Shown here one piece after another: positions 15,872 through 55,751 of a stretch of 61,710 bases of DNA. The DNA comes from Minisyncoccia bacterium (lineage in GTDB: Bacteria > Patescibacteriota > Minisyncoccia > Phycocordibacterales > JAACPR01). A program made the position numbers and the translations under genes. Every line of letters begins with the position of its first letter. Position 1 is the first letter of the stretch. Under the pieces are notes generated by a model. That model was not told the DNA's origin. It worked only from the letters and a program-made list of their open reading frames with translations, and did no database searches. The stretch lies in contig JBGSLH010000004.1 in the NCBI GenBank assembly GCA_041740795.1, positions 1 to 61,710 of the forward strand, written 5' to 3'.

Positions 15872-17878
15872 ATGAGCAATCCAGACAAAGTAATATATTT
15901 TGCAGAAACTGATGCTCGTAATTCTCGCATCAAGTTCGGAATAAAACAAAAAGACAGGTCACGACATGTGTACGTGATCGGTAAAACTGGTATGGGTAAG
16001 TCTACTTTGCTTGAGAACATGGCTGCGCAGGATATCCAGAGTGGGAACGGAATATGCTTTATGGATCCCCATGGAAAGACCGCAGAACTTCTTCTTGAAT
16101 ATATTCCGAAGGAGCGTACGAATGACGTGCTGTATTTTGCTCCGTTCGATATGGAACATCCAGTTTCTTTCAATATCATGGAAGACGTGGGATATGACAA
16201 GCGTCACCTCGTGGTGTCTGGATTAATGAGTGCATTCAAAAAGATCTGGAAGGATGCATGGTCTGCTCGAATGGAATACATTCTTTCAAATACACTTTTT
16301 GCTCTGCTCGAATATCCTGATGCAACGCTTCTTTCGGTGAATCGAATGCTTTCGGACAAGGCCTTCCGAAAAAAGGTGGTAGATAATATCAAAGATACCG
16401 CAGTAAAATCTTTTTGGGTAGATGAATTCGCAAACTATACAGAGCGTATGGCAGCCGAAGCAGTGCCTGCGATCCAGAACAAAGTGGGACAGTTCACTTC
16501 TAATCCTCTTATCCGAAACATCATCGGGCAGCCGAAGTCGAGTTTTGACCTGCGGGAAATGATGGACAACAAAAAAATAATCATTGTAAACCTTTCAAAG
16601 GGAAGGATGGGAGAGTCGAACGCACAGCTTCTCGGATCACTTCTTGTGACCAAGATCTATCTTGCTGCCATGAGTCGAGCCGATGCAGGTCCGCATGAGA
16701 TCGACTTGCTCCCGGACTTCTCACTTTTTGTCGATGAGTTCCAGTCTTTTGCCAATGAATCTTTTGCGGATATTCTTTCTGAAGCGCGTAAGTATAAATT
16801 AAATCTACACATCGCCCACCAGTATGTCGAACAGATGCCTGAAGAAGTACGTGCTGCTGTGTTTGGTAACGTCGGCACACTTGTGACGTTCAGAGTCGGT
16901 TCTGCAGACGCTGAACTTTTTGAAAAAGAATTCGCTCCAACCTTCATGCAGCAGGACATCGTGAACCTCGGTTTTGCTCAGGTCTATATGCGACTAATGA
17001 TTGATGGGATTGGCTCCAAGCCTTTTTCTGCCTCAACCTTGCCTCCGCTCGCACTTCCTGAGGACAACAGTACTGTTGACGTAGTGGCGGCTTCAAGACG
17101 GCAATTTACGCGTTCTCGAGTCGAAGTGGAGGAACAAGTGAAGGAACTTACCAATATGGGACGTGCAGAAGAGGGTCAACGCTCAGGTGATGGCAACAGA
17201 GGCCAGTCGAGACAGGATTTTGGTCAAAAAAAGGGAGGAGGACAAGGGCAGTATTCGAAGATGTCATCCCGCACGAACTCGCCTGCGACGAGTGAAGATG
17301 CGGGATCTCGTAACAATACACCGAGATCCCGGAATGAATCCGGGATGACATCTCATCAAGTCCGGGATGAGAGACAGACTCACCCTCAATATTCAAGAGA
17401 AGTTGCCATCGACCTGACTCGGCAGGCTCCGCGACATGAACAGCACGGCAAGCCTGCGATTTCCAAAGATAAAGAATACGAACTCAAGAAACAACTTGAA
17501 GAGGCAAAAAAACGTGCGATTGACGAGTCGGCTGACGAACCTGTGGAGGAATTTGTTTCACTCAAATCTATTTCGCAGAAACCGGGACAAAAGGACGTTT
17601 CAAAAGAAAATAAAAATGCGCTCAAAGATGCATTACTCAAAGTCTTGCAGCAAAACGGCGCGCCTGCCCAACCTACTCATGTCGAAATCGTGAACAAGGA
17701 CGTGAAGGAAACTCACACAGAGACGGTGAAGATTGATACAGAGCCTATGCAGAAACGAGAGACGATCCTGCATCCTAAATTGGAAAAGAGGGCAGAGCCT
17801 AGGCGAGAATCCACTGAGCCTATCAAGCCAGGAGAAATTCCTGAGGATGAGTTGAAGAGGTTATTGGAAGTGGAGTAA
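15872..17878 (+). CDS. VirB4/TraD/HerA-like ATPase (type IV secretion DNA-binding/DUF87-like) with long disordered C-tail
   Basis: Walker A GKTGMGKS, DPHG, Walker B LFVDEFQ, ARKY, AVFGNVGT. Confidence 0.88.
   Translation: MSNPDKVIYFAETDARNSRIKFGIKQKDRSRHVYVIGKTGMGKSTLLENMAAQDIQSGNGICFMDPHGKTAELLLEYIPKERTNDVLYFAPFDMEHPVSFNIMEDVGYDKRHLVVSGLMSAFKKIWKDAWSARMEYILSNTLFALLEYPDATLLSVNRMLSDKAFRKKVVDNIKDTAVKSFWVDEFANYTERMAAEAVPAIQNKVGQFTSNPLIRNIIGQPKSSFDLREMMDNKKIIIVNLSKGRMGESNAQLLGSLLVTKIYLAAMSRADAGPHEIDLLPDFSLFVDEFQSFANESFADILSEARKYKLNLHIAHQYVEQMPEEVRAAVFGNVGTLVTFRVGSADAELFEKEFAPTFMQQDIVNLGFAQVYMRLMIDGIGSKPFSASTLPPLALPEDNSTVDVVAASRRQFTRSRVEVEEQVKELTNMGRAEEGQRSGDGNRGQSRQDFGQKKGGGQGQYSKMSSRTNSPATSEDAGSRNNTPRSRNESGMTSHQVRDERQTHPQYSREVAIDLTRQAPRHEQHGKPAISKDKEYELKKQLEEAKKRAIDESADEPVEEFVSLKSISQKPGQKDVSKENKNALKDALLKVLQQNGAPAQPTHVEIVNKDVKETHTETVKIDTEPMQKRETILHPKLEKRAEPRRESTEPIKPGEIPEDELKRLLEVE
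17263..17373 (+). mobile_element. RPE-like palindromic element B1, in-frame in the ATPase, with extra partial right end
   Basis: GTCATCCCGC...GCGGGATCTC-13nt-GAGATCCCGGAATGAATCCGGGATGAC (87 bp) then CATCAAGTCCGGGATGA. Confidence 0.85.
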
Positions 17879-17887
17879 GATTTGGAC

Positions 17888-18652
17888 CTACTTTGCTTTC
17901 TTGAAATATTGACTGATTTTTTTCGTAATTCTTTTAAGGATAAAGAATCGGGGAATTTTTAATGAATTAACCTTCCATGCTTTTTGTAATTCGTGCCAGC
18001 CTTTTATTCTTTGTTTTAAATTCTGCGCACTTGTTCCCCCTTCTCTCATACTGACAAAAGTTTCGGGAATATATTTTACGTTTATCTTTTCGATCTTCAA
18101 AAGTCTGAGAAGTAGTTCGTAATCAGCGGCAATTGAGAATCGAGGGTCAAAAATTTTATCTAGTTTCTGATACACTTCTTTTCTTACAAAAAAAGTCGGG
18201 TGGGGAATTATCCAGCCATCGTTCAGACTTTCTTCTTCATATTTGCCGGATTTCCAAAAACGAGTCTGTTTTGAAATATTGTCCCGCTCTACATATCTCA
18301 AGTCTCCATATACTGCGTCTATATTTGGATCAGATTCAAACACTGAATTGATTTGAGATAAAATATCTTCAGAAGCAAAAAAATCATCGGAATTCAAAAT
18401 GCCGACAATGTCACATGTAGCGATTAAGATCCCTTTGTTCATTGCGTCATAGATTCCATTGTCAGGTTCTGAAATTAATGTAATATTTATTTTGTTTTTG
18501 TATGTTGAAATAAGTTTTTGGGTACCATCTGTTGAAGCTCCATCAACTATAATATATTCCAAGTCAGAATAATTTTGACCAATAACGCTTTGGATTGTGT
18601 CTCCAATTGTCTTACTCGAATTATAAGAGGGTGTAATTATTGTGATTTTCAT
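17888..18652 (-). CDS. Glycosyltransferase family 2 (WcaE-like)
   Basis: KITIITPSYN, IVDGASTDGT, GIYDAMNKG, LNSDD, PHPTFF. Confidence 0.93.
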   Translation of the reverse strand: MKITIITPSYNSSKTIGDTIQSVIGQNYSDLEYIIVDGASTDGTQKLISTYKNKINITLISEPDNGIYDAMNKGILIATCDIVGILNSDDFFASEDILSQINSVFESDPNIDAVYGDLRYVERDNISKQTRFWKSGKYEEESLNDGWIIPHPTFFVRKEVYQKLDKIFDPRFSIAADYELLLRLLKIEKINVKYIPETFVSMREGGTSAQNLKQRIKGWHELQKAWKVNSLKIPRFFILKRITKKISQYFKKAK

Positions 18653-18655
18653 TAT

Positions 18656-19408
18656 CTATAGAATTTTGTATGTGGCCAAAATTTCCGTTGATGTTTCAAC
18701 AGTTGAACTATTCAAAGGAGAAAGCGTATATCCTAATGACTTTAGTAATTCAATACATTCTTGATGTATCTGCTCACTATGGGTAGATAAAAATATAGTA
18801 GGGTGGAATTCTTTTAAGGTTTGTAATGCACCATGTAATACATCGACTTCTGCACCTTCAACATCAATTTTCATTAGATTGGGTCTAAGAATAATTTGAT
18901 CGGCAATTAATTCATCGAGACTTATGACTGGTACAAGTAGGCCACTTTTTTCCTGACTCAAAAAACCTGTTGCAGCATGATCTCCGTCATTAAAATAAAC
19001 CACATCCTTTTTATTTGAAACTCCTCCAATAAAAACTTTTGAATTAGTACAGGTATTCAAATCAAAATGTCTTTTTAGATAATGAACGTTTCTCGGTGCT
19101 GGTTCAAAAGCGTACACATTCCCTCTGTCTCCTACAATTTTTGAAGCGATAAGAGAATAAAAACCAACATTTGCACCAATATCAAAAACCGTATCACCTT
19201 CTTTGATCTTGTCTGTGAACATTCTTTGCTGTTCAATTTCGTATGTTCCAAGCCAGTATGCATTTACTCCAGATCCTTTTATCCATCGAGATCCTTTCAA
19301 TGAACCTTGCAAGATGGGTAGGATTGTTTCATTGGGAATAATCTTGAGAAGTAATCTTGAAAAAGATCCAAGAAGTGTTTTTTTTGAAATTTTTGAAATA
19401 TTGATCAT
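18656..19408 (-). CDS. FkbM-family methyltransferase
   Basis: VFDIGANVG, AFEP, MKIDVEGAE. Confidence 0.92.
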   Translation of the reverse strand: MINISKISKKTLLGSFSRLLLKIIPNETILPILQGSLKGSRWIKGSGVNAYWLGTYEIEQQRMFTDKIKEGDTVFDIGANVGFYSLIASKIVGDRGNVYAFEPAPRNVHYLKRHFDLNTCTNSKVFIGGVSNKKDVVYFNDGDHAATGFLSQEKSGLLVPVISLDELIADQIILRPNLMKIDVEGAEVDVLHGALQTLKEFHPTIFLSTHSEQIHQECIELLKSLGYTLSPLNSSTVETSTEILATYKIL

Positions 19409-20313
19409 GTAATTAGGGTAAAAAGCTTTTTAATAAAATGTTTCCAGAATGGATAATTGTTTCTTTGGGTAATATTATCAGATTCGATGTCTTTAACAAT
19501 ATTTACAGGATGATTCAATGGAAATTGAAGTGGTGATGTCACCATATTTGCAAACTTACTGATCCTTTTTGTGTGAGTAGATTGTAGGTCTCCGAATCCG
19601 ATATTAGAAATGAGATTAACTGAAGGCATGATGGAAAGATAGTTGTTAGTGAAACACGCATATGACCACTGGTAATCCCATGTATCTATTTTGTTATTGT
19701 ATACATCATCAAATATCGAAGACCAGTAAAAAGCATCTTTTTTATTTCCGAATATTTGATCGAGCCCCTTTTGTCTTTTTGTATCTGGCCAATTGGATAG
19801 CGCAACGTCGTATTTTGCCCACGCCCTTTTCCAGGTTGCCCATCCCCAAATGTGCGAGTATTTTGAAAAGTAATAGCTGTATTCATTCTTAATTTTTCCA
19901 AATTGAAAATTGTCACCACTGATCATTCCAATTCGATCATCATCCTTGTACTTCTCCAGCATCTCCTCACAGAATTTGAAGAATGTTTGATCAGGAAGAC
20001 AATCATCCTCCAAGATAATCCCTTGTTCTTCGTTCTCAAAAAACCAATCTATTCCTGAAGACACTCTTTTTTTACAGCCAAGATTTATATCTGAATAATT
20101 TTTAAACACTTCGCATTCCCAATCGATCAAGTCTAGTATTTTGCGAGTTTCAGAACATAATATATCTTCATTCTTTTTTTCATTTCGTGCTCCATCTGCG
20201 ACAATATATAATTTTGTCGGCCTTAGTTCTTTTATTTTCTTAAAAACTTGAAAAGTAGTATCAGGTCGATTGAATATGATAAACAATATTGGGGTTTTGA
20301 AAGTCAGATTCAT
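19405..20313 (-). CDS. Nucleotide-diphospho-sugar transferase (HlpA-like GT-A)
   Basis: PILFIIFNRPD, IVADGAR, NLGCK, IILEDDC, HIWGWATW. Confidence 0.88.
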   Translation of the reverse strand: MNLTFKTPILFIIFNRPDTTFQVFKKIKELRPTKLYIVADGARNEKKNEDILCSETRKILDLIDWECEVFKNYSDINLGCKKRVSSGIDWFFENEEQGIILEDDCLPDQTFFKFCEEMLEKYKDDDRIGMISGDNFQFGKIKNEYSYYFSKYSHIWGWATWKRAWAKYDVALSNWPDTKRQKGLDQIFGNKKDAFYWSSIFDDVYNNKIDTWDYQWSYACFTNNYLSIMPSVNLISNIGFGDLQSTHTKRISKFANMVTSPLQFPLNHPVNIVKDIESDNITQRNNYPFWKHFIKKLFTLIT

Positions 20314-20314
20314 A

Positions 20315-21025
20315 TTATAGGTATTTACACACAAAGAATAACATCCTCACTAGAATATTGGGAGTGGGTAGGTTGTTATCTTGCATCTCTTTTAGATATT
20401 TGTCATGGTTAAGGTCTCCAAGTGAATCTCCTCTTTTTGTAAAAATTACAGACGATATGGGAAGATATGTAAAAGTTGAATCTTTGATCTGTGCAATTTT
20501 TACAAACAAATCAAGATCTCCACAGATTTTGAAATTAGAATACTTAAAACCTCCAACTTGACTATAAATGTTTTTGGAAAAGATAATACTTGGTTGGATT
20601 GCAGGGATACATCCGTGTTTTAAAAAGAATTTTCCAAATCTCCTCCCTTTGCCAAACTCGGTGCGGTTTTCATTTGTAAAAAAATAAGTACCGTCAGAAT
20701 ATATAAAATCAATTTTTCCTTTAGTCGCTTTTATATAGAGTTGCTCATAACCGGTAGGAATTATTCGATCGTCTGCATTTACCCATGTTATGAGATCACT
20801 TTGAGCTTCTTTGAACCCTTGATCTATTGCTCCGTACATTCCTGTGGCTTCTGTTTGATGGAAAAGTTTGATGTGTGGATATTTTGAAATTATCTCCAAG
20901 GAATTATCTGTCGAACCTCCATCTACTATAATATGTTCAAAAGGAATAGAAAGTTTTTGAATGGACAAAATATTATCTTCGATATATTTTCCATTATTAA
21001 GGTTTGGAGTGATTATGGAAAGCAT
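20315..21025 (-). CDS. Glycosyltransferase family 2
   Basis: SIITPNLN, IVDGGSTD, WVNADD. Confidence 0.9.
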   Translation of the reverse strand: MLSIITPNLNNGKYIEDNILSIQKLSIPFEHIIVDGGSTDNSLEIISKYPHIKLFHQTEATGMYGAIDQGFKEAQSDLITWVNADDRIIPTGYEQLYIKATKGKIDFIYSDGTYFFTNENRTEFGKGRRFGKFFLKHGCIPAIQPSIIFSKNIYSQVGGFKYSNFKICGDLDLFVKIAQIKDSTFTYLPISSVIFTKRGDSLGDLNHDKYLKEMQDNNLPTPNILVRMLFFVCKYL

Positions 21026-21026
21026 A

Positions 21027-21980
21027 TTAGGAATGGATAAGCTTAACAAGACTGGACTTTATCTTTCGTAACTTCCTAAGTAGAGTATATTCATGGATTG
21101 ATACGGGCTTTCGACCAACTCTTTTTATAAATTCATTTTCAAGATCTTTGATATGCCAGATCTCTAAAGGTTCAAAAAATTCTATACTCTGGGTATCAAA
21201 TAAGTTATATATTTCTTGTTTGTGCCAACTATCTAGGGGTTCAATTGAGGGGTGTTGTGATTTGTAATCTATAATCCATTCTTCTGGTGTTGTAGATAGT
21301 TTTCTAATTGCACATTCGAGTGAATGTGCATACGAAGAATTGATAGAAATATATCTTTTTGGATCTTTTACTAATTCACTACATCGGTATAGTGCTTGTT
21401 TGTACTGAGTCTTTTCCCAAAAGGTCCATTGGAGGTGAATTATCGGTGTAGAATCAACTTTTACACATGTTGTCAAAAAACCTTGAGGAATACGCGAAAC
21501 ATGATCATTGATTATAACTTCTGTGTCATAGTTTGTGATTCCATCATCTACCCACGCTGCACGTTGGTAATTTTTGTACCATACACCTGTGCTGTTGTAA
21601 TGTTTTAAAGATTTCCATAATTGTATCCATGGGAATCTGAAACTGTCACCAACCTTAAAATCATGTTCATTTAAAAACTTTCTAAACATATTAACAGGAA
21701 TATACTCATCTGCATCCAAACAAAGTATAAGATTTCCTTCTCCATATTGCCTGGCTTTTTTTAAGAGATCCCATCTAACTTGGTTTGAATGTCCTTCTCT
21801 CGGATTATCAATTACTGTCACTTTTGGAAAGTTTTTATACAATTCTTTTGATCCGTCAGTAGACATCTGATCAGATATAATAATTACATCGCAATATTGA
21901 GTAAGTATGTTCAAGGTAATTGGTAAAACAGCAATCTCATTTTTTACAGGCATAAGACATATTACTTTTGGGTTTTGCAT
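21027..21980 (-). CDS. Glycosyltransferase family 2-like
   Basis: CLMPVKNE, DQMSTDGS, CLDADE. Confidence 0.85.
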   Translation of the reverse strand: MQNPKVICLMPVKNEIAVLPITLNILTQYCDVIIISDQMSTDGSKELYKNFPKVTVIDNPREGHSNQVRWDLLKKARQYGEGNLILCLDADEYIPVNMFRKFLNEHDFKVGDSFRFPWIQLWKSLKHYNSTGVWYKNYQRAAWVDDGITNYDTEVIINDHVSRIPQGFLTTCVKVDSTPIIHLQWTFWEKTQYKQALYRCSELVKDPKRYISINSSYAHSLECAIRKLSTTPEEWIIDYKSQHPSIEPLDSWHKQEIYNLFDTQSIEFFEPLEIWHIKDLENEFIKRVGRKPVSIHEYTLLRKLRKIKSSLVKLIHS

Positions 21981-21983
21981 AAC

Positions 21984-23207
21984 TTATTTTGACCTTAATT
22001 TTTTAATTTGTCTGTATAAGGTAATAGTATATCTATTGTAAAACAATATTCGTAATTTTGTTAAAAAATGGAAAAATAATCTACGAGCCCGGTGAGGGAA
22101 GGGATTTTGTAATACATCCTTATAAATTTTGACGATCTTCCGTATTTGATTTTTGAGTTCATAGTGTTCGTTAAATCTTTCTTTTGCGTTTGTAGATAGT
22201 AAAGTATAGTACTCTTTATCATTCATTAATCTTGCAAGTTCTTCGGCATACTCTTCAATTGTGTCTACAACCTTGCCAGCATTACCGATTGCTTCTATGT
22301 GTCCATTTGCCATTGTCGATGTATGACTTACAATCGGTAATCCAAAATACATAGCTTCTGCCATTGCTGAAGAATTCACTTCTCCATCTTTTCGCCCATG
22401 AGAAAATACATCCAGTGTCAAAATAAAATTGTAGATATCATCTTGGGTTTCTGCATAAGGGAGAAATACGATGTTCTTAATACCTAACTCCTGAGCTTGT
22501 TTTTTGTACAGATCACTTCCGTTCAATAGTAAAAATACTGTATGTTCATTTTCGATCTTTTTGTATGCCGCAAGAGGGATGGGGGAATATATCCAATCAT
22601 CTTTTCGTTGGTGAAAACCAAAGACAAACTTGTTCTCAATTTTTAATTTTGGACGCAAGTCGACATAATTCTTTTTGGGTATCTCAATGAATGTGGAAAT
22701 AATCTCTACTCGTTTCGAATCGCCACCCTTTTTAATCCATTGATTTGCGGACCAACTTGAAATATGTAGAACTCGGGAAATATTGTACTGATTGTCTATG
22801 CCTGCCAACAAATGAAGAGAATCAATAATCGGAGTTTTTTTAATTTTTGTAAAGGGATATTCTGGATATCCTCCTCTGCCTGTTTGAATAAGATCATAAT
22901 TCTTTTCATTAAATTTTTCCCAAAAATCAGTTCCGATCCAGTCGTGATTTGGAGATGTTACGTCTTTGTATGCAACATGAAACTTAACAAGATTCACGGG
23001 ACTATTTTGTAGAAATTCGACTCGTTCTGGATCTGTATCGAGATGTTTAAAATCACTTCCAAGATATGGCGCTGCATCGCAATAAAAATAATCCACTGAA
23101 AACTTGTCTTCGGGTAGATTTGCTGCAAGAACCTGAAGAAACTTCTCAGTACCTCCTGCAGAGAGTCCTCCAAATTTTATAAAGGCGATTTTAATTTTTT
23201 GGGTCAT
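21984..23207 (-). CDS. Glycosyltransferase family 4 (GT-B)
   Basis: GGTEK N-terminal motif, DVFSHGRKDGEVNSSAMAEAMYFGLPIVS. Confidence 0.87.
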   Translation of the reverse strand: MTQKIKIAFIKFGGLSAGGTEKFLQVLAANLPEDKFSVDYFYCDAAPYLGSDFKHLDTDPERVEFLQNSPVNLVKFHVAYKDVTSPNHDWIGTDFWEKFNEKNYDLIQTGRGGYPEYPFTKIKKTPIIDSLHLLAGIDNQYNISRVLHISSWSANQWIKKGGDSKRVEIISTFIEIPKKNYVDLRPKLKIENKFVFGFHQRKDDWIYSPIPLAAYKKIENEHTVFLLLNGSDLYKKQAQELGIKNIVFLPYAETQDDIYNFILTLDVFSHGRKDGEVNSSAMAEAMYFGLPIVSHTSTMANGHIEAIGNAGKVVDTIEEYAEELARLMNDKEYYTLLSTNAKERFNEHYELKNQIRKIVKIYKDVLQNPFPHRARRLFFHFLTKLRILFYNRYTITLYRQIKKLRSK

Positions 23208-24150: not shown

Positions 24151-24155
24151 ATTAT

Positions 24156-24872: not shown

Positions 24873-24875
24873 GTT

Positions 24876-25445
24876 TTATTGTGTTATTAAGTCGAGTACT
24901 TCTGATAATTCACATATTGAGTGAAGAGGGGAACTCGCTCCTCGTTTTTTATTGGAATGGTCGTTGATAAGTTGAATTGTTTTTACTCCGGCCGCAATCC
25001 CACATTCAATATCGTTATCTTGGTCTCCGATCATCCATGAGCCTGAAAGATCCAGACTGTAGTCGTATGCAGCTTTTTTTATGAAGAATGGTTTTGGTTT
25101 ACGACATTCACAAGGACCTGAATATTCAGATATCACCCCGTCCGGATGATGATAACAGTAATAATATTCTTTAATATTTATACCATATTTTTCAATCTGT
25201 TCCTGGAGCCTTCGGTGGATTTCCTTGATGTTTTCAAGTGATGTTTTGCCTTTTGCATAGCTTGGCTGATTTGAAATGGTAAAGAGGTTGTATCCCATGT
25301 CATTGAACTTTTTGAGGGTTTCGAGTACGTTCGGTCTCAAAATCAAGTCATGCGGTTCATGGGGAGATTCATAATCGTCAGTTTTTGGATTGAAAACCAA
25401 TTCATTTATGACGCCGTCCCTGTCTAAGAAAATTGCCTTGTTCAT
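24876..25445 (-). CDS. gmhB: D,D-heptose 1,7-bisphosphate phosphatase (HAD)
   Basis: AIFLDRDGVIN, SNQP, CYHHP, CECRKPKP, MIGD. Confidence 0.93.
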   Translation of the reverse strand: MNKAIFLDRDGVINELVFNPKTDDYESPHEPHDLILRPNVLETLKKFNDMGYNLFTISNQPSYAKGKTSLENIKEIHRRLQEQIEKYGINIKEYYYCYHHPDGVISEYSGPCECRKPKPFFIKKAAYDYSLDLSGSWMIGDQDNDIECGIAAGVKTIQLINDHSNKKRGASSPLHSICELSEVLDLITQ

Positions 25446-26149: not shown

Positions 26150-26160
26150 GTTCCGTAATG

Positions 26161-43321: not shown

Positions 43322-43378
43322 TTTAATTAAATTTAAATTAAAAGAACAAAAACCACCTCCTAGGGGTGGTTTTTGTTT

Positions 43379-43438: not shown

Positions 43439-44320
43439 ATGCTTGCGATATTACTTACCTACTTTTTTCTTCTCGGACTTGCGATTGGAAGTTTTCTCAA
43501 TGTCGTAATCCTGAGACACAACACAGGCAAGACGACGGGTGGAAGGTCTGCATGCATGGTTTGCAAGAATCAACTTGGATGGAAAGAACTCGTGCCGCTT
43601 TTTAGTTTTCTTTTTCAGAGAGGGAAGTGTGCTCACTGCAGAACAAGAATCAGTTGGCAGTATCCGCTGGTAGAATTCTCGACTGCGGTTCTTTTTACCC
43701 TTAACTTCTATTATCTCTTTACAGAGTCACGTTCGATATCTGAGCTGATCCTTTCTGTCGGACTGACCTCGTGCATCTGGGCGTTGCTTGTTGTGATATT
43801 CGTATATGACTTGCGACACAAGATTATTCCAGATGTATTCTCGGGAGCACTTTTTGTACTCAGTATCTTACTTGTACTTTCATCCCGGATTTATTCCGGG
43901 ATCTCTTGGTTTTATTACGAGATCCCGCATCTTCGTCCGTCTTCGACAGACTTCGTGCAGGATGGCAGTGTACTTACGTACCTTAACTTGAGTGCTGGCG
44001 TTATTTTTTATCTTGTAATTTATGCGATATGGAAACTTTCAAACGGACGCCTCATTGGACTCGGAGACGCAAAACTTCTTCTTGGTACGGGAACTATTCT
44101 TGGATTCGTATATGGACTGTCGTCGATTGCACTTGCTGCATGGATCGGATGTGTGTACGTGATTTTTGTCTTGTTGAAACAAAGATTGAGTATAAAGGGT
44201 AAACATATTACAATGAAAACAGAAATTCCGTTTGGTCCGTTTCTCATTCTTGGATTCTTGATCGTGTACTTCCTGCGAATCGATGTGACTAATCTGGGTT
44301 TTATTTTAGAAAACTTTTAA
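43439..44320 (+). CDS. pilD: Prepilin peptidase (A24) with in-frame palindromic insertion
   Basis: IGSFLNVVI, RSACMVC, GKCAHC, YDLRHKIIPD, IGLGDAKL, PFGPFL. Confidence 0.93.
   Translation: MLAILLTYFFLLGLAIGSFLNVVILRHNTGKTTGGRSACMVCKNQLGWKELVPLFSFLFQRGKCAHCRTRISWQYPLVEFSTAVLFTLNFYYLFTESRSISELILSVGLTSCIWALLVVIFVYDLRHKIIPDVFSGALFVLSILLVLSSRIYSGISWFYYEIPHLRPSSTDFVQDGSVLTYLNLSAGVIFYLVIYAIWKLSNGRLIGLGDAKLLLGTGTILGFVYGLSSIALAAWIGCVYVIFVLLKQRLSIKGKHITMKTEIPFGPFLILGFLIVYFLRIDVTNLGFILENF
43879..43966 (-). mobile_element. RPE-like palindromic element B3, reverse orientation, in-frame in pilD
   Basis: TCATCCCGGATTTATTCCGGGATCTC-TTGGTTTTATTAC-GAGATCCCGCA... is the reverse complement of B2; encodes SSRIYSGISWFYYEIPHLRPSSTDFVQDG. 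Confidence 0.85.
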
Positions 44321-45458: not shown

Positions 45459-45460
45459 AT

Positions 45461-46054: not shown

Positions 46055-46064
46055 TCAGAAGCAT

Positions 46065-48634
<2,570 letters not shown>

Positions 48635-48637
48635 CAT

Positions 48638-48727
48638 GTCATCCCGCATGAAGTGACTCCATAGGAGGAACGGAGTTGCGGGATCTCGTAATAAAACCAC
48701 GAGATCCCGGAATAAATCCGGGATGAC
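48638..48727 (+). mobile_element. RPE-like palindromic element B2, intergenic
   Basis: GTCATCCCGC...GCGGGATCTC-GTAATAAAACCAC-GAGATCCCGGAATAAATCCGGGATGAC. Confidence 0.87.
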
Positions 48728-48758
48728 GAGAATATATTTACATGCTACTATGGGCTTT

Positions 48759-49043
48759 ATGAATAAAGACGATATCAAACATCTTGCGCATCTTTCGCGT
48801 CTCCATCTCGAAGATGATGAGGCAGAAGCCTTCACACATCAATTTGATGAGATTGTTGCATATGTTGATAAAATTAAAGAAATCTCTTCTGATCTTGGTT
48901 CCGATATTATCGAATCTAACGAAGTTCGAAATGTTCTTCGAGAAGATATCGTTGTTTCTTATCAAAATCCTGAAAACATAATTAACGAAGCTCCGTCTCA
49001 CTCCGATAACTTCGTGAAGGTTAAAAAGATTCTCAATCAATAA
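48759..49043 (+). CDS. gatC: Asp/Glu-tRNA amidotransferase subunit C
   Basis: DIKHLAHLSRL, LRED, VKVKKIL; upstream of gatA. Confidence 0.92.
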   Translation: MNKDDIKHLAHLSRLHLEDDEAEAFTHQFDEIVAYVDKIKEISSDLGSDIIESNEVRNVLREDIVVSYQNPENIINEAPSHSDNFVKVKKILNQ

Positions 49044-49044
49044 T

Positions 49045-50451
49045 ATGAACATTTCTGAATTTACAATTGAAACACTCAATGCAAAATTGATTTCAAAAGA
49101 ACTTTCTGTTCAGGAAGTTGTCGATGCATTCATTTCTCGAATTTATGAAAAAAATGATGAACTCAATGTGTTTATCGAAATTCATAAAGATTTTATCCAA
49201 AAACAAATACTCGTTGCTCAATCAAAAATAGATGACGGGAGCGCGACTATTTTGACAGGTATTCCAATTGCCGTTAAAGATAATATCTTAATCAAAGGAG
49301 AAAAAATCACAGCTGCTTCAAAAATCTTAGAAGGCTATACTGCGACATATGATGCGACCGTCATTGAGAAATTAAAATCACACGGAGCAATTCTTATACC
49401 TCGGGCAAATATGGACGAATTTGCCATGGGAGCGACGACAGAGAACTCTGCTTTTGGGGTGACGAAGAATCCACATGATATGGGCCGTGTTGCAGGAGGA
49501 TCATCGGGAGGAAGTGCCGTAGCGGTTGCTGCTGGGATGACCGTTGCTTCTCTTGGTTCTGATACTGGAGGATCAGTCAGACAACCAGCATCTCTTTGTG
49601 GAGTAGTGGGATTAAAACCTACGTATGGAAGCGTGTCTCGAAATGGCCTTATCGCAATGGCGAGCTCATTTGATGTGATTGGACCGATCACTAAGAATGT
49701 CGCTGATTCCAAAATTATTTTTAATGCGATCAAAGGAACCGATCCTCTTGACCAGACGACTGTGCTTAAGGAGATTTCATCAGAAGTAAAAAAAATAGGT
49801 GTACCATATCATTTTCTTAAATCAGGTATAGATGCGGATGTACTCGAAGTTTTTAATTCGAACATTGAAAAACTCAAAGGTCTTGGATATGAAATCGTAG
49901 ATATTTCAATTCCGAGTTTTGAATACGCACTTTCTATTTATTATATTCTTGTTCCTGCAGAAGTTTCTTCCAATATGTCACGTTTTGATGGAGTGAAGTT
50001 TGGAGCAAAAGTAGAGGGAAAAGATCTTACTGATGATTATTTTAAAACTCGAGGTACACTTCTTGGAACAGAAGTAAAACGACGGATCATGCTTGGTACA
50101 TATGTGCTTTCGGCTGGATATGCAGATGAATATTATAGAAAGGCATGGGTAGCTCGTAATGCGATTAAGTCAGAGGTCAAAACTATTTTTGAACAAGTAG
50201 ATATGATTGCGATGCCAGTATCACCTTTTCCTGCATTCAAAATTGGTGAAATGTCTTCAGACCCACTCAAGATGTATCTTGCTGATATATTTACTGTATC
50301 TGCAAACGTAGCTGGTGTTCCTGCGATTTCTATTCCTGCAGGAACAGTTGTACGAGAAGATAAAAATCTTCCAATTGGTTTACAACTCATCGCGCCATGG
50401 CATGGTGAAGAACGCCTCTTTAATGTTGGAGCAAAATTTGAGATACTGTAG
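49045..50451 (+). CDS. gatA: Asp/Glu-tRNA amidotransferase subunit A
   Basis: GIPIAVKDN, NMDEFAMG, GGSSGGS, GSDTGGSVRQPA. Confidence 0.97.
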   Translation: MNISEFTIETLNAKLISKELSVQEVVDAFISRIYEKNDELNVFIEIHKDFIQKQILVAQSKIDDGSATILTGIPIAVKDNILIKGEKITAASKILEGYTATYDATVIEKLKSHGAILIPRANMDEFAMGATTENSAFGVTKNPHDMGRVAGGSSGGSAVAVAAGMTVASLGSDTGGSVRQPASLCGVVGLKPTYGSVSRNGLIAMASSFDVIGPITKNVADSKIIFNAIKGTDPLDQTTVLKEISSEVKKIGVPYHFLKSGIDADVLEVFNSNIEKLKGLGYEIVDISIPSFEYALSIYYILVPAEVSSNMSRFDGVKFGAKVEGKDLTDDYFKTRGTLLGTEVKRRIMLGTYVLSAGYADEYYRKAWVARNAIKSEVKTIFEQVDMIAMPVSPFPAFKIGEMSSDPLKMYLADIFTVSANVAGVPAISIPAGTVVREDKNLPIGLQLIAPWHGEERLFNVGAKFEIL

Positions 50452-50454
50452 GTA

Positions 50455-51480
50455 ATGGCTGAAATAAAAAAAGACGCTCCAAAACCTACTTCTTCTGCTT
50501 CTGGTGACGAGCGACATTGGTTCATCGCTTTCTTTCCTGTGATCGTGGTCTTTGTTCTACTTGCACTCGGAGCAAGACTCAATCAAGAAACTATCTTTGG
50601 TGACAAGCTTCAGGATCCTCCAACTGATGCGCTTTCGACAAAGAAGGATATTTTGAATATGTACGAATGGATTGGACCAGGTGAACTTTTTGAATCACAA
50701 AGAATTATTAATACAGATAAAGTAATTGTTCGTAATACTCCAGCTGGCGGAATCGTTGGTAAGCAAAAAAAACTTATTACAGGAGTCCTTCGAGGCGAAC
50801 CTGTCGAAGCTTTCAATACAGTATGGTGGAGAGTGGATTATCCCGAAGCTCCCGACGGATGGGTGAATGTTGAGCAGATTTCCTCAAAGGTGAAGACTGT
50901 GCGAGCAATCAACATTGTCCCGATTGTTTACGGATTTTATAAACCGATCGGATACACACTGCTCTTTGTGCTCTTGATCTTTTTTGTATATTTCAAATTC
51001 AAGTTGAAGAAAGAAGAGAAGATTGCCAAAAAGAAAAAGACACTGAAGGATGAACTGTATCAAGAAAAATCAGTGCCACTGTCCGTGCGCATTGAACAAA
51101 AGCCAGATGTGCAAGAAGTGTCGGGATTCCAGACCGAAGAAATTGTCCCTATTCAGGTTCTCGAACAGCAGAACAGGTGGAAACACATCCAGGATCTTAT
51201 TAAGTCATACAATGCGAACGATTGGAGACAAGCGATCATCGAAGCGGATATTATTTTGGAAGAAATGCTCGATAAAATGCAGTACGAAGGTCTGACTATT
51301 GGAGATAAGTTAAAAAAAGTCGAGAAGTCCGACTTCGTGACGCTTGATCGAGCGTGGTCTGCGCACCGTGTTCGAAACCAGATTGCTCATGATGGTTCAA
51401 GTTTCAAGCTCCATCGCGAATTGGCCGAAAAGACAATCAAGGATTATGAAATGGTATTTCGAGAGTTCTACTATATTTGA
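50455..51480 (+). CDS. Two-TM protein with SH3-like external domain and C-terminal HEPN-like domain
   Basis: TM1, VRNTPAG...WWRVDY...DGWV, TM2 followed by poly-K, AHRVRNQIAH. Confidence 0.8.
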   Translation: MAEIKKDAPKPTSSASGDERHWFIAFFPVIVVFVLLALGARLNQETIFGDKLQDPPTDALSTKKDILNMYEWIGPGELFESQRIINTDKVIVRNTPAGGIVGKQKKLITGVLRGEPVEAFNTVWWRVDYPEAPDGWVNVEQISSKVKTVRAINIVPIVYGFYKPIGYTLLFVLLIFFVYFKFKLKKEEKIAKKKKTLKDELYQEKSVPLSVRIEQKPDVQEVSGFQTEEIVPIQVLEQQNRWKHIQDLIKSYNANDWRQAIIEADIILEEMLDKMQYEGLTIGDKLKKVEKSDFVTLDRAWSAHRVRNQIAHDGSSFKLHRELAEKTIKDYEMVFREFYYI

Positions 51481-51580
51481 TAGGTATCAACTGAATATTT
51501 TGACAAACCCCATTTATTTTGTAAGTATGCAAAAGAATCTTCTTTTACTATGAAAACCAAAACAGAATACTTGCAAACAT

Positions 51581-51919
51581 TTGCTCGCCATGCTTTTCTC
51601 AATATGCTTACTTCTTTGGGCAGGAATCAAGCTTGAATCGTCCTTGTACGTGCGAGGATTGGCTCTTGTTCCTTGGTTGGTTATCTTCGGCTTCTCCCTA
51701 AGATTACTTCATGTTTACTTCGAGTGTCCTCTCGACTCTGATTCATTCAGTAAGCTGAATCGTATCATAGATGCCTGCGCGATCGGTGCAGGCCTCTCGT
51801 TTATTTTCATCATGACTATCACTTTGCCAGAAGTGAACATGAAGGCAATTTCTGTAGTCTTGGGAACCTTCGGATTTTTCGTAGTCTATTTCCACTCTTT
51901 ACCCATAAGAAAAAAATAG
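51581..51919 (+). CDS. Hypothetical multi-TM membrane protein (start uncertain)
   Basis: Hydrophobic 112-aa ORF from TTG; upstream TTGACA; terminator 51935-51963. Confidence 0.6.
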   Translation: MLAMLFSICLLLWAGIKLESSLYVRGLALVPWLVIFGFSLRLLHVYFECPLDSDSFSKLNRIIDACAIGAGLSFIFIMTITLPEVNMKAISVVLGTFGFFVVYFHSLPIRKK

Positions 51920-51973
51920 ATAAGTAAATCTGCCAAACAGCGCGTTACGACGCGCTGTTTTTTAATTTAAATA

Positions 51974-52975
51974 TTAGATCTCACTCACTCTATATCCACT
52001 CGGAGCATTTTTCAGATATTCTTCTATCTTTGCTTGTGAAAGAAGTCCTGCTTGCGCACCTATATATTGAACAACCGACATCGAGTTGATTGGTCCCCAG
52101 AGAAATGCTTCCTGAAAAGGTTTGCCAAGCGCAAGGGCTGAAGTGATAGTTGATGCGAAAGAATCTCCTGCACCAGTTCGATCGACAGGTTCCTTAAGAT
52201 CTGGATACATTGGTACTTGATACGTCTTTGATTCGTAGAGTGCGTGTGCTCCGTTTGGTCCGTCTGTAATGATAGGAATCTGTGGACCTAGATCTTTTAT
52301 ATTTTGTAACAATATTTTTATATCAGATTCTTTTGTGTTCAAAATAGTCTGAGCTTCTTCTTTATTACAGAAAAACAGATATGTGTGAGCGTATAGATCC
52401 TTAAGTGCATCATATCCAAGTTTTATTTGAAATGTCCCTGGTTGAAATGCTAATTTGGTATTCGTATTCTTTTTCAAAAATTCTGCGATTTGGTGATGGT
52501 ACTCAAGAGAGTTTTCTGCAAGTGAACTGAGATACATAAAAGACGGTGCAGGAGAAATATTTGGGAACGAGTAGGGGAACTCTGTGTGCTTCACAAGGAT
52601 CGTTCGTTCTGCTCCTAATCTGAGAACATAATGATAATTAGATTTCTGATCTTTATGTACGAGAACGTATTTGGTATTGATACCTTCTTTTTTAAGTGCT
52701 TGAATTTGCTCTCGTCCAAAAGCATCGTCTCCAGTATTAGTTACCAGTCCAGTTTTGAGTCCGAGTCTATGTGCACTTACTCCTGCATTCGGGCTATTTC
52801 CAACAGCAGCCACTACTACGACATCATTGAAAGGGAGCTTTGTACCGAATTTCATACAGAGTTCTTTTTCTCCTGCAGGATTGTCAGTCTCGACCCATGC
52901 GCTGTTAAGTTCGATAAAGGCGTCAGTCACAATATCTCCGACTGCTATAAAATCCAATTTTTTGAAGTTAAACAT
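51974..52975 (-). CDS. PfkB-family carbohydrate kinase
   Basis: GNSPNAG, FCNKEEA, ITDGPNGA, DRTGAGDSF. Confidence 0.93.
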   Translation of the reverse strand: MFNFKKLDFIAVGDIVTDAFIELNSAWVETDNPAGEKELCMKFGTKLPFNDVVVVAAVGNSPNAGVSAHRLGLKTGLVTNTGDDAFGREQIQALKKEGINTKYVLVHKDQKSNYHYVLRLGAERTILVKHTEFPYSFPNISPAPSFMYLSSLAENSLEYHHQIAEFLKKNTNTKLAFQPGTFQIKLGYDALKDLYAHTYLFFCNKEEAQTILNTKESDIKILLQNIKDLGPQIPIITDGPNGAHALYESKTYQVPMYPDLKEPVDRTGAGDSFASTITSALALGKPFQEAFLWGPINSMSVVQYIGAQAGLLSQAKIEEYLKNAPSGYRVSEI

Positions 52976-52999
52976 ATGAAAGGATTATATCATTAGCAC

Positions 53000-53139
53000 G
53001 TCATTCCCGCGAAGGCGGGGATCCAGTCCCGAAGGGATTAATTGATTAAAGTTATTGTGTAACGATTTGCGACTCCTGTCCTTTGACTAGTTATGTTTTG
53101 CGCTTTGTGATCCTGGATTCCCGCCTTCGCGGGAATGAC
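53000..53139. mobile_element. RPE/dRS3-like MITE with 27-bp terminal inverted repeats
   Basis: GTCATTCCCGCGAAGGCGGGGATCCAG ... CTGGATTCCCGCCTTCGCGGGAATGAC. Confidence 0.85.
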
Positions 53140-53170
53140 GACACTGTGAATATGTTATACTAAGCCTCAT

Positions 53171-54028
53171 ATGACACTCAAAGAAACAATTTTAGACGCC
53201 AAGGCGCGTAAGGTAGCAGTCGGACATTTTAATGTATCTAATCTCGAAGCGGTGCATGCGATCAAGGAAGCCGTGCAGGAAACTGGATATCCTGTAATCA
53301 TAGGTCTCTCAGAAGGCGAAGGGGAATTCTTTGGTTTGCGCGAACTTGTTGCGATCGTTCGGGAATATCAGTCTCGAGGACTGCCTATCTTTACGAATGC
53401 TGATCATTCATATTCTTTTCAGCGAGCACAGAGTGCAATCGACGCAGGATTTGATGCAGTGATTATTGATGGTGCTGATTTGCCTCATGAAAAAAATATT
53501 GCAATGACAAAAGAAGTAGTTGAGTATGCACGATCTCAAAATCCAAACTGTCTTGTAGAAGCCGAGATTGGATTTATTGGAAAATCTTCAAATATTTTGG
53601 ACAAAATTCCTGAAGGAGTCGGAACAGAAGAATTTCTTACTAAGCCTGAAGAAGCAAAGGCATTCGTAGATGCGACAGGTGTCGACATGCTTGCTCCTGC
53701 AGTCGGTAATCTTCATGGAATGCTCAAGGACATGCCTAATCCTCGACTTGATATTCCTAGGATCCAGGCGATTGCGGATGCAACAGGCGTCCCACTTGTA
53801 CTTCATGGTGGTTCTGGGATTAGTGTCGAAGATTTCAAGGCAGCAATCGCAGCAGGAATTTGTATTGTGCATATCAACACCGAAATTCGAATAGCATACA
53901 AGGAAGCTCTGATAAAAGGACTTGCGGACAATGCGGATCAAGTTGCTCCGTACAAATTTCTCAAGCCTGCACAGGAGGCAGTCAAAAAGGTAATAATCGA
54001 GAAGCTAAAAGTATTTAACAATGGGTAA
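53171..54028 (+). CDS. fba: Class II fructose-bisphosphate aldolase
   Basis: NADH, VEAEIG, VDMLAPAVGNLHG, LVLHGGSG, NTEIR. Confidence 0.93.
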   Translation: MTLKETILDAKARKVAVGHFNVSNLEAVHAIKEAVQETGYPVIIGLSEGEGEFFGLRELVAIVREYQSRGLPIFTNADHSYSFQRAQSAIDAGFDAVIIDGADLPHEKNIAMTKEVVEYARSQNPNCLVEAEIGFIGKSSNILDKIPEGVGTEEFLTKPEEAKAFVDATGVDMLAPAVGNLHGMLKDMPNPRLDIPRIQAIADATGVPLVLHGGSGISVEDFKAAIAAGICIVHINTEIRIAYKEALIKGLADNADQVAPYKFLKPAQEAVKKVIIEKLKVFNNG

Positions 54029-55751
54029 TGCTAATAGTGAGATCCCGCATCGAGTGAGGGATGACAAAAATACCGTGCGGGACGACAGTGTGATTTTACC
54101 CAAAGAACTTTTTTCCCTTTTACAAAAACAAATACAGGGCGAAGTCGTTTTTGACGAGGAGACTTTGCAGAAGTACAGTCATGACACGTCAATTTTTGAA
54201 ATAAAACCTCTTGCAGTCGTGTATCCCAAGAACTCGTTAGATATTTCTCATATTATAAAATTCGTTCAAGATAATAAGTTCACCATTCCACAACTCTCGA
54301 TTACACCTCGAAGTGGAGGATCAGACATGACAGGTGGTGCGATTGGACAAGGGCTGATTATTGATGTGACACGCTACATCAACCAGTTTGAAATTGATTT
54401 TAAGAATCTTGCAGCACACGTACAGCCCGGAGTATTCTACCGTGACTTTGAACCAAAGAGTCTCGAGCAGAATCTCATTATGCCTGTATATCCCGCATCC
54501 AAAAACCTCGCGGCGTTCGGTGGGATGATCTCAAACAATTGTGCAGGAGAAAAATCCTTACAGTACGGACAGATGCGCAACTTCGTCACGGATATCAAAG
54601 TTGTGTTATCGAACGGAAAAGAATATCAATTCAAGGAACTTTCTTTTGATGAGGTTCAAAAAATTATAAAGGGCAAGGACGAATTTATCGCGGGGATCTA
54701 TCGTCGCATCTTCCATATGCTTGATCAGAATTACGAATTCATCCAGAATGCAAAACCGAAGACGAGCAAGAACTCTTCTGGGTACGCGCTGTGGAATATT
54801 ATGGATAAAGAAAAAAAGACATTCAATCTTGCTCAGCTCTTTGTTGGGGCACAAGGGACACTTGGATTTCTGACGGATGCCAATATCAGACTTGTTGAAG
54901 AAAAACCTTTTCAAAAAATTATCACGGTATTTCTACCTTCGTGGAATCCTTTGCCAAAGCTGGTAAATGATCTTCTTGTGCATAAGCCTGAATCTCTCGA
55001 AGTGTTCGATGATACGACACTCAAGCTTGGACTCAGATTCTTTCCTCAGATTGCAAAACGAATCGGCCAACCACTTTTCAAATTTCTTGTGAGCTTCATT
55101 CCTGAATTCTTCATCGGAGTGCGAATGCTCGGACTTCCTAAGCTCATCATGCTGATTGAACTTTCTGCCAATACCCAAGAAGAACTCACTCGTAAGATTC
55201 ATGCGACCGAAAGTTCACTCAAAGACAATAAGGCGATCTTTAGAACAATTCCGACCGTCGAGGAAGCGGAGAAATATTTTGTCGTACGACGAGAGAGCTT
55301 CAATCTTCTGAGAGAAAAAGTAAAAGGGAAGAATACCGCACCGTTTATCGAGGACTTCTGTATTTTGCCTGAGAAGCTCCCTCAGTTTCTTCCTGAGCTT
55401 CTTGCGATTCTCAAAAAAAGCAAGATCGCGGTGAATGTTGCCGGTCATGCAGGTAATGGGAATCTTCACATCATCCCGCTTATGGACCTGAAGGATCCCA
55501 AAGAACGTGCCAAGATCGTAACAGTTGCCAAGCAAGTCTATGACTTGATCATCTCGTATGGAGGAACGATTACTGCTGAGCATAACGACGGGATCATGCG
55601 AACGCCCTTTGTGAAGGATATGTTTGGCGAGAGAACATACCTCCTGTTCAAGGAAGTGAAGAGCATTTTTGATGCAAACAACGTCTTCAATCCTGGTAAG
55701 AAGGTGGATGGAACGCTCGAGGATATCGAGAAGTGGATGAAACACGGGTAA
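54021..55751 (+). CDS. FAD-linked oxidase (GlcD/D-lactate dehydrogenase-like)
   Basis: PRSGGSDMTGG, NCAGEKS, GAQGTLGF, AGHAGNGNLH, TAEHNDG, NPGK. Confidence 0.88.
   Translation: MGNANSEIPHRVRDDKNTVRDDSVILPKELFSLLQKQIQGEVVFDEETLQKYSHDTSIFEIKPLAVVYPKNSLDISHIIKFVQDNKFTIPQLSITPRSGGSDMTGGAIGQGLIIDVTRYINQFEIDFKNLAAHVQPGVFYRDFEPKSLEQNLIMPVYPASKNLAAFGGMISNNCAGEKSLQYGQMRNFVTDIKVVLSNGKEYQFKELSFDEVQKIIKGKDEFIAGIYRRIFHMLDQNYEFIQNAKPKTSKNSSGYALWNIMDKEKKTFNLAQLFVGAQGTLGFLTDANIRLVEEKPFQKIITVFLPSWNPLPKLVNDLLVHKPESLEVFDDTTLKLGLRFFPQIAKRIGQPLFKFLVSFIPEFFIGVRMLGLPKLIMLIELSANTQEELTRKIHATESSLKDNKAIFRTIPTVEEAEKYFVVRRESFNLLREKVKGKNTAPFIEDFCILPEKLPQFLPELLAILKKSKIAVNVAGHAGNGNLHIIPLMDLKDPKERAKIVTVAKQVYDLIISYGGTITAEHNDGIMRTPFVKDMFGERTYLLFKEVKSIFDANNVFNPGKKVDGTLEDIEKWMKHG
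54039..54086 (+). mobile_element. Partial RPE-like element B4, in-frame at oxidase N-terminus
   Basis: GAGATCCCGCATCGAGTGAGGGATGAC plus partial repeat GTGCGGGACGAC; encodes EIPHRVRDDKNTVRDD. Confidence 0.72.

Follow-up and report, generated by a model that had tools for sequence, protein, structure and literature searches.

The palindromic element and its copies in the window

The window, by which we mean the whole 61,710-nucleotide stretch analysed here, is one contig (C4) of a 652,950-bp, 16-contig metagenome-assembled draft genome (G000, about 80% complete) of a Minisyncoccia bacterium belonging to the Candidate Phyla Radiation (CPR). It carries three full copies, 87-90 bp in length, of a palindromic element: one within the gene of a P-loop ATPase (17263-17349), one in reversed orientation within the prepilin peptidase gene pilD (43880-43967) and one between ligA and gatC (48638-48727). 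A further, degenerate single unit (54042-54086) lies at the start of the gene of a FAD-linked oxidase. The initial annotation of this DNA had described a single palindromic family inserted in frame into three proteins; the element sequences are indeed present where it had placed them, and translation of the open reading frames (ORFs) reproduced its peptides. In the genome as a whole, members of the family lie in frame inside no fewer than six intact genes and probably inside a seventh; three of these genes map in the window. The right arm of the element is formed by the 26-mer GAGATCCCGGAATRAATCCGGGATGA, of which the window has three occurrences and 100 shuffles none; GCGGGATCTCG, at one mismatch or fewer, is found six times (shuffle mean 0.5), and the z-scores of the three full copies folded as single-stranded DNA are -6.1, -4.1 and -5.2 relative to shuffles.

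The basic unit of the family comprises, in this order, a (C/T)GTC tag, the stem sequence ATCCCGCAC, a loop, GTGCGGGAT, and then a C followed by the tail TCG. Its outer stem measures 8-9 bp, begins with AT and is invariant in sequence, while the loop takes one of three forms: a short TTG or TTGA; the form ATCCCGG-ATTYAT-TCCGGGAT seen in the right arm of the window copies; or, as in their left arm, an insert of 23-26 nucleotides that is itself a hairpin and characterizes 18 long units. The loops of the short forms (TTG, TTGA, ATTYAT) span 3-7 nucleotides. Two inverted units with outward-facing tags, separated by approximately 12 AT-rich bases, make up a doublet of 66-112 bp overall. The arms of a doublet frequently differ in their inner hairpin, which implies that they fold separately or that a four-way junction forms. 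All true units start with (T/C)GTC apart from one in which the tag is mutated to GCC and two in which it reads GTCG.

The nested hairpin (6-8 bp) varies in sequence with its pairing kept, and its loops are mainly C-GNA-G triloops, a closing motif associated with DNA mini-hairpins of exceptional stability. A set of 12 long units, two of them from a sister species, was used to analyse covariation. The outer helix, with the pairs ATCCCGCA/TGCGGGAT, is unbroken in all 12, and six of its eight pairs are invariant; the inner helix displays both-sided, compensatory changes at five of seven pairs, with 89% of cells paired, and the observed covariation score was reached in none of 500 shuffles. The outer stem is thus conserved as a sequence and the inner helix as a structure, and the retention of the former beyond mere pairing suggests that it is recognized by a protein. 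The possibility that the inner hairpins are independent mobile modules was considered and rejected, none having been found outside the units.

At one end of most composite elements the tag is directly preceded by TTAG(C/T)A. This hexamer is translated as Leu-Ala in the RNase HII gene rnhB and in the ATPase gene of the nearest relative (G004), and at four intergenic loci at least, the gene upstream uses the TAG of the hexamer as its stop codon. We assign TTAGCA to the element because rnhB orthologs with an empty site are devoid of it. For the same reason, its role as a target site was rejected for rnhB; the situation at ligA is ambiguous.

Host genes and sites of insertion

The first host gene (15872-17878, plus strand) encodes a 668-residue HerA/TrwB/VirD4-like P-loop ATPase matching the Pfam families T4SS-DNA_transf, DUF87 and TrwB_AAD_bind; the gene is intact and was kept in all 26 relatives searched. 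The doublet that it harbors on the plus strand (17263-17349; fold z = -6.1) is 87 bp long, equivalent to 29 codons, with its GTC tags outward. It consists of a long unit on the plus strand (17263-17306; GTCATCCCGCAC, a nested hairpin and ATGCGGGAT) followed by the tail and spacer CTCGTAACAATACACCGAG, and of a short unit on the minus strand (17326-17349; GTCATCCCGGATTCATTCCGGGAT). The encoded peptide, SSRTNSPATSEDAGSRNNTPRSRNESGMT, sits in a length-variable, low-complexity linker past the conserved ATPase domain, a linker at which G004 carries another unit. The proposal that both this copy and that of the oxidase bear extra partial right ends holds for the oxidase, where a half-stem is duplicated, and fails for the ATPase: the sequence following the copy, CATCAAGTCCGGGATGAG (HQVRDE), has a counterpart in the nearest relative, CATCAAGTAAGGAATGAG (HQVRNE), and is therefore either old host sequence or an old remnant.

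The second host gene, pilD (43439-44320, plus strand), encodes a prepilin peptidase of the A24 family (Pfam A24_N_bact, 6.6e-29, and Peptidase_A24). It is single-copy, with one match in the genome, and is flanked by four pilin-like genes as judged from the N_methyl motifs in its neighbors. We note that the start codon listed for this ORF is a TTG at 43373, and that ATG 43439 restores the 16-residue lead before GSFLNV found in 23 orthologs; the listed start is probably wrong and the ATG the true one. The doublet (43880-43967, minus strand) is reverse-complemented with respect to the gene and encodes residues S170-G198 of the 315-residue ORF (SSRIYSGISWFYYEIPHLRPSSTDFVQDG). The tag of its long unit (43922-43966) is mutated to GCC, and the short unit, at the 43880 end, has lost its final C. 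As had been predicted, alignment with 29 orthologs places an insertion of 29 residues at the element, in the most variable loop of the protein, between the catalytic motifs YDLRHKIIPD and GLGDAKL, both of which are intact. HKIIP and GLGD are separated by 75 residues here; the corresponding distance is 49-51 residues in the relatives G005 and G007, and members of the wider family have 54-58. In an AlphaFold2 model of the 293-residue form built from 24 sequences (mean predicted local distance difference test score [pLDDT] of 85; predicted template modelling score of 0.83), the sole long stretch with a pLDDT below 50, residues 156-175, falls within the element-coded residues 148-176. The element is abutted by one copy of a perfect 7-bp direct repeat, TGTACTT (43873-43879, plus strand), whose right copy occupies 43969-43975. 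Of the 19 composite loci, no other displays such a flanking repeat, and random pairs of 14-mers share a 7-mer in 0.7% of trials.

The intergenic doublet (48638-48727, plus strand) lies between ligA and gatC and starts 3 nucleotides past the stop codon of ligA (TAG, 48632-48634). Its long unit spans 48638-48684 and its short unit, on the minus strand, 48704-48727. The ORF listed for gatC is 48723-49043, and alignment with three relatives (G003, G006 and G007) places the start of the gene at ATG 48759. The spacer is thus approximately 124 nucleotides long in the window, 90 of which belong to the element; that of G003 and G006 is 16 nucleotides long (TGCTAGTATGGCAAGC). In G007, the same spacer is occupied by an unrelated long AT-rich hairpin of approximately 95 nucleotides (locus L159).

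The third host gene (54021-55751, plus strand) encodes the 576-residue FAD-linked oxidase (Pfam FAD_binding_4 and FAD-oxidase_C) and has an alternative start, GTG, at 54089. The element sequence present within its first 24 codons had been described as an in-frame right half; it is in frame with ATG 54021 as claimed, and is really a single, degenerate minus-strand unit (54042-54086; GTCGTCCCGCAC-GGTATTTTT-GTCATCCCTCAC-TCG-ATGCGGGAT) in which the tag and the half-stem are duplicated. The unit folds weakly (z = -2.2 as DNA). In G004, G003, G006 and G007, the oxidase begins with M-(H/P/F)-K-(D/E) at an ATG that overlaps the aldolase stop codon. After this same ATG, the window's gene has 72 additional in-frame bases (24 codons) that are missing in these four relatives, which makes translation from ATG 54021 plausible.

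Genome-wide census and reading frames

A search of the genome with an nhmmer profile built from the three full window copies returned 23 loci, and a scan for hairpins returned 59 units, of which about 50 are true family units distributed over 32-33 loci (shuffled genomes give 3-12). Fifteen window-type doublets and four pairs of the canonical NTS hairpins described below make up the composite elements. In a census of coding vs intergenic copies, 25 of 32 loci proved to be intergenic and seven to lie inside long ORFs, although some 91% of the genome is coding (crude gene map; binomial p = 4e-20).

Most loci are found 1-8 nucleotides after a stop codon. This placement, the strength of the hairpins and the presence of an unrelated hairpin at the ligA-gatC site of a sister species would all be in keeping with a role of the family in punctuation at the level of RNA or DNA, be it by termination or by mRNA-stabilizing hairpins, with the intragenic copies as spill-over and ordinary recombination or slippage as the means of spread; many REPs (repetitive extragenic palindromes) have in fact been argued to act as RNA (PMC3733652). 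Yet, the hairpins lack a T run behind them, the sequence conservation of the outer stem points to recognition by a protein, the family motif brackets a nuclease gene across phyla (see below), and no Rfam family matches the intergenic copy, the best match having an E-value of 0.12 and nothing coming near the gathering threshold. We therefore regard punctuation as an unlikely account of the family. It is, besides, compatible with rather than exclusive of the nuclease-driven spread that we propose below.

The seven intragenic loci map in genes whose products were assigned by Pfam to the following families: the ATPase, PilD and the FAD oxidase of the window, TsaD, RNase HII, RsmE and an HI0933-like flavoprotein. 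Every one of the seven copies keeps the frame and contains no stop codon, and the Pfam domains and catalytic motifs of the host genes are intact. Across the six frames of 15 full copies, 38% are open (53% for intragenic and 28% for intergenic copies), and the chance of finding seven of seven copies in frame and open is approximately 5e-7 if length and frame are unconstrained. This is unlike what would be expected of inserts that are untranslated or spliced out. Excision of the intragenic copies from the mRNA, or their skipping at translation, had been raised by the initial annotation and would leave the peptides missing from the proteins; a palindrome could conceivably join its two ends in RNA. 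Under excision, however, there would be no need for the frame to be kept and stops to be avoided in every copy; the lengths and boundaries of the copies vary, moreover, and no intron or ribozyme model matches, making such a process extremely improbable. Judging from the reading frames, the element-coded peptides are presumably present in the mature proteins.

That these copies were inserted is further indicated by the orthologs, among which the RNase HII insert is missing in five species of the genus. The sole point in favor of the opposite view, namely that old host sequence drifted into similar palindromes or that the copies are artefacts of assembly, is that the genome is a metagenome-assembled draft. 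Near-identical 26-mers in unrelated genes, empty sites in sister genomes and related units in independently assembled relatives all speak against it, and we give it practically no credence. Altogether, the census, the protein domains and the orthologs support the earlier description of a dispersed palindromic family that is in frame in either orientation and adds peptides of about 23-38 residues. The host genes are intact, and orthologs are found without the inserts. The mobility of the elements we infer from their distribution.

An Ssn-type nuclease gene bracketed by canonical hairpins

Chenal et al. (2025) defined the NTS of Neisseria as CGTCATTCCCGCGMAVGCGGGAATCYRG and showed SsnA, a 94-residue GIY-YIG protein, to bind it as single-stranded DNA and to cut a few nucleotides upstream (PMC11893778). 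Cutting is controlled by the three nucleotides before the palindrome and binding by the C after it, the loop can be removed or extended in vitro, and the ssnA gene is itself bracketed by NTS copies (PMC11893778). What that study reports is a role in controlling transformation in Neisseria, not in-frame insertions, and its main text makes no mention of Patescibacteria (PMC11893778).

Exact matches to CGTCATTCCCGCGMAVGCGGGAATCYRG occur in the window at 53117-53139, on contig C8 at 88798 and on contig C12 at 48563 and 48909. The two copies on C12 (48563-48585, plus strand, and 48909-48931, minus strand) are inverted, with their tags outward, and bracket an Ssn-type GIY-YIG ORF of 99 residues (C12:48631-48930, locus L063; Pfam GIY-YIG, 5e-18), thereby reproducing the published NTS-ssn-NTS cassette architecture. 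The initial annotation had envisaged a mobilizing nuclease or transposase, and this gene is a candidate for that role. With its final codons (KPGFPPSRE), the ORF extends into the 3' NTS hairpin. The C12 protein is 55-68% identical to homologs in CPR groups, Rickettsiales, Legionella and a Neisseria species, the identity to the latter being 64% over 84 residues, and its residues Y7, Y18 and E65 align with Y6, Y17 and E64 that were mutated in the Neisseria study (PMC11893778). Tagged hairpins, mostly of the identical NTS sequence, are present on both sides of the gene in 28 of the 80 closest GIY-YIG homologs across phyla. NCBIfam holds no Ssn-specific model, and the sole match of the C12 protein in the PDB is the UPF0213 protein 1zg2 (E = 0.002).

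The hairpin and the nuclease also tend to be found together. Among 61 relatives, NTS was detected in seven genomes and a close Ssn in five; four genomes have both, three NTS only, one Ssn only and 53 neither (Fisher p = 3e-4). More broadly in the phylum, 68 of the 301 genomes sampled carry NTS, with no match to a reversed control pattern. The expansion is far larger in one relative of the same order (G059) than in the window's genome: G059 has 102 canonical NTS copies, mostly as inverted pairs whose starts are some 45 bp from each other, along with several complete or fragmentary copies of ssn. The window's genome encodes one more small, single-domain GIY-YIG protein at C8:79973-80218; this 81-residue product is 37% identical to the Ssn-type protein, no tagged hairpins are found nearby, and similar weak homologs exist in about half of the relatives.

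A different enzyme could be invoked. The architecture of the doublets is REPIN-like, and contig C1 encodes a RAYT-like Y1 HUH protein (C1:3520-4035; 172 residues; Pfam Y1_Tnp, 8.7e-9; HxH motif) flanked by hairpins, such that the doublets might be REPINs, i.e. pairs of GTCATCCCGC hairpins cut and pasted by this protein. The hairpin at the Y1 gene, AAAGGTTTAAGGAATTC-TCC-GAATTCCTTAAACCTTT, is however unrelated to the family and numbers only about four copies genome-wide; the tag of the family is of the CGTC type and not GTAG, no family unit maps on C1, and no association of CGTC repeats with RAYTs was found (PMC3733652). The involvement of the Y1 protein is thus very improbable. The Y1_Tnp gene adjoins rpsL, rpsG and fusA, and a 37-nucleotide perfect hairpin is present on both of its sides (C1:3437-4075, locus L001).

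Relationship to known repeat families

The family belongs to an already known class of repeats, that of the CGTC-tagged REPs and of the NTS and Ssn-related motifs (SRMs), and is not new in kind. Di Nocera, De Gregorio and Rocco (2013) described the CGTC superfamily as including dRS3 of Neisseria and RPE-6 and RPE-4 of R. conorii (PMC3733652). Its REPs are defined by a terminal CGTC, TGTC or CCTC tag, an 8-9-bp stem whose first two positions are complementary A and T residues, a loop of 4-5 nucleotides (atypical loops being allowed in some species) and a short unpaired tail with the consensus CCA (PMC3733652). Inverted dimers are common, copies lie within about 20 bp of the 3' ends of genes, and some intragenic dimers are in frame and code for 20-30 residues (PMC3733652). 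Such repeats were reported in five phyla, CPR not being among them (PMC3733652). The window family shares with these REPs its tag, a stem starting with AT, a short tail, inverted dimers, a location at 3' ends and in-frame intragenic dimers. It departs from them in its loop, which at 3-7 nucleotides or as a nested hairpin of 23-26 nucleotides falls outside of the 4-5-nucleotide definition; in its tail, which is C-TCG or C-CAG and not CCA; in the outward orientation of the tags in every dimer; in its CPR host; and in the proportion of its loci that are intragenic, about one in five.

NTS offers a second comparison. The units, of the general form (T/C)GTC-ATCCCGC...GCGGGAT-C, have retained the GTC tag, a CCCGC/GCGGG core and the C that follows the palindrome, positions on which cutting and binding depend. 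They differ in that the window subfamily has ATCCCGC in place of ATTCCCGC, its stem being shorter by 1 bp (one T), and the tail CTCG instead of CCAG. This deletion of one stem T and a different tail distinguish all three full window elements from CGTCATTCCCGCGMAVGCGGGAATCYRG.

Rickettsia palindromic elements (RPEs) provide the other obvious comparison. Ogata and colleagues are said to have described in 2000 how RPE-1 and other RPEs lie in frame in intact, often essential genes. RPE-1 is longer (approximately 100-150 bp) and has no CGTC tag. The window family resembles RPEs in that it places palindromes in frame within the intact genes of a small genome, adding peptides that are compatible with the function of the products; the likeness is one of behavior. 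Its kinship to RPE-4 and RPE-6 is taken here from the published classification (PMC3733652).

With the REPIN/RAYT systems, reportedly described by Nunvar and colleagues in 2010 and by Bertels and Rainey in 2011, the family has in common inverted hairpin doublets that behave as a replicating population and a single-copy domesticated nuclease gene flanked by repeats. Unlike in these systems, the nuclease gene is of the GIY-YIG type rather than a Y1 transposase, the tag is CGTC and not GTAG, and the arms of the doublets often fold separately, owing to their different inner hairpins. The hypothesis that the elements are miniature inverted-repeat transposable elements derived from a DDE-type insertion sequence was rejected, as 18 of the 19 composite loci are without flanking direct repeats beyond chance. 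Our search of the literature found nothing on REP-like or in-frame palindromes in CPR.

Proposed mode of spread

Our preferred interpretation, which we consider likely, is that the family represents a lineage-specific subfamily of CGTC-tagged REP/Ssn-related-motif hairpins that spread by means of an Ssn-type nuclease and whose in-frame copies are translated. The hairpins would extrude in single-stranded DNA, where the Ssn-type GIY-YIG nuclease of the genome would bind them and nick a few bases 5' of the tag; repair or template switching might then copy units to new sites or over resident copies. Copies would survive chiefly just past stop codons. Within genes, the survivors would be those with a length that is a multiple of three, free of stops and situated in permissive loops, linkers or termini, and would be translated as peptides of about 23-38 residues that are probably disordered. 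The C12 Ssn may cut the ATCCCGC subfamily, and nicking may be what drives its spread.

Several observations weigh against this scenario. The NTS flanking ssn differ from the window subfamily, whose stem is shorter and whose tail is CTCG. Three NTS-bearing relatives are without an intact close ssn: none was found in G009 and G029, and only a fragment in G004. The assemblies of both G004 and G000 are incomplete, which bears on the missing ssn. If GTG 54089 is the real start of the oxidase gene, the copy that precedes it may be untranslated. To our knowledge, mobilization of CGTC repeats has never been demonstrated. The role established for Ssn in Neisseria is that of limiting transformation, not transposition (PMC11893778). 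Finally, changing the sequence of the stem abolishes Ssn activity even where the hairpin is kept (PMC11893778), and this dependence on stem sequence raises the possibility that the C12 enzyme does not act on the ATCCCGC copies.

Reuse of sites and age of the family

In a tree of the genus built on two proteins, the pairs G000/G004 and G005/G007 are each recovered with a bootstrap support of 100%. Four sites in this genus (the loops of PilD and RNase HII, the linker of the ATPase and the start of the oxidase) hold different members of the family in sister species and are empty in other species. In the ATPase linker, the window-type doublet of G000 is matched in G004 by a single unit, an NTS variant with the stem ATCCTCGCGAAGGCGGGGAT. 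In the loop encoded by rnhB, G000 has a long + long doublet, G004 a decayed long + short one and G005 an NTS-like variant doublet with the stems ATCCTCAT and ATCCCCAC, the site being empty in G007 and four others. The start of the oxidase, which bears a single unit in G000, is occupied in G005 by an NTS-like variant doublet (stems ATCCCCAT and ATCCTCGCG) and is empty in G004 and G007. In the PilD loop, where G000 has its reversed doublet, G002 carries a different tagged hairpin. Such a pattern would be expected if a very small number of permissive sites were hit repeatedly, and equally if resident copies were converted in place by other members of the family. The doublet at the oxidase site of G005 is flanked by ATGTATAA and ATGTCTAA, such that the upstream stop and the downstream start have both been re-created. 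Together with the pilD locus of the window, it is one of two insertions displaying flanking duplications of 7-8 bp.

The long units of G004 fall into the same three inner-hairpin classes as those of G000, indicating that the unit subfamily is older than the split between these two genomes. The central palindrome of the doublet, GGGATCTC-N-GAGATCCC, was found in none of 40 relatives and only in the window's own genome. Doublets of the exact window form thus look species-specific.

A bolder interpretation, one that we see as possible though rather doubtful, is that the elements are polar mobile units, with a TTAGCA end providing a TAG stop and with outward-facing Ssn hairpins, which repeatedly enter or overwrite the same permissive codons of housekeeping proteins. 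If this were true, Ssn-nicked hairpins would constitute a site-reusing system that keeps rewriting protein loops, and the long-missing mobilizing enzyme of the whole CGTC-REP class would have been identified.

The findings presented here extend the Ssn/NTS hairpin-repeat system, and in-frame palindromes in the style of Rickettsia, to the ultra-small genomes of CPR bacteria. About one in five of the loci in the window's genome is inside an intact, conserved gene, including that of the sole prepilin peptidase. Relative to the known class, the variant features of the family are its nested inner hairpins, its polar TTAGCA end and the reuse of its sites. The genome further offers compact material with which to address the question of whether Ssn nucleases mobilize CGTC repeats: an enzyme of 99 residues together with the canonical sites that belong to it, a subfamily that has diverged and acquired nested hairpins, and orthologous sites that are filled or empty in sister species. 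With regard to annotation, inserts of this kind may pass for frameshifts, pseudogenes or novel domains, and may shift apparent start codons.

Other repeats in the window and elsewhere in the genome

The window contains an additional composite of the same superfamily that was absent from the list of the initial annotation. This composite (52994-53145), approximately 145 bp long, has NTS ends whose tags face outward, the left one on the plus strand (53000-53022; TTAGCA-CGTCATTCCCGCGAAGGCGGGGATCCAG) and the right one on the minus strand (53117-53139; CGTCATTCCCGCGAAGGCGGGAATCCAGG). Homologs having internal sequence in common with it are present at C9 32491-32680 and C12 49617-49785, and the composite appears to derive from an NTS-bracketed cassette, of which it lacks the gene. 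Outside the window, a 916-residue paralog of the window ATPase is encoded at C2:3327-6190, and a long + long doublet of the family is situated 3 nucleotides past its stop codon. Lastly, a GC-rich perfect hairpin, GAGGGGCGCGCC-TGC-GGCGCGCCCCTC, maps at positions 58625-58675 of the window and has a similar counterpart at C8 21930; it probably belongs to another, terminator-like family of repeats.

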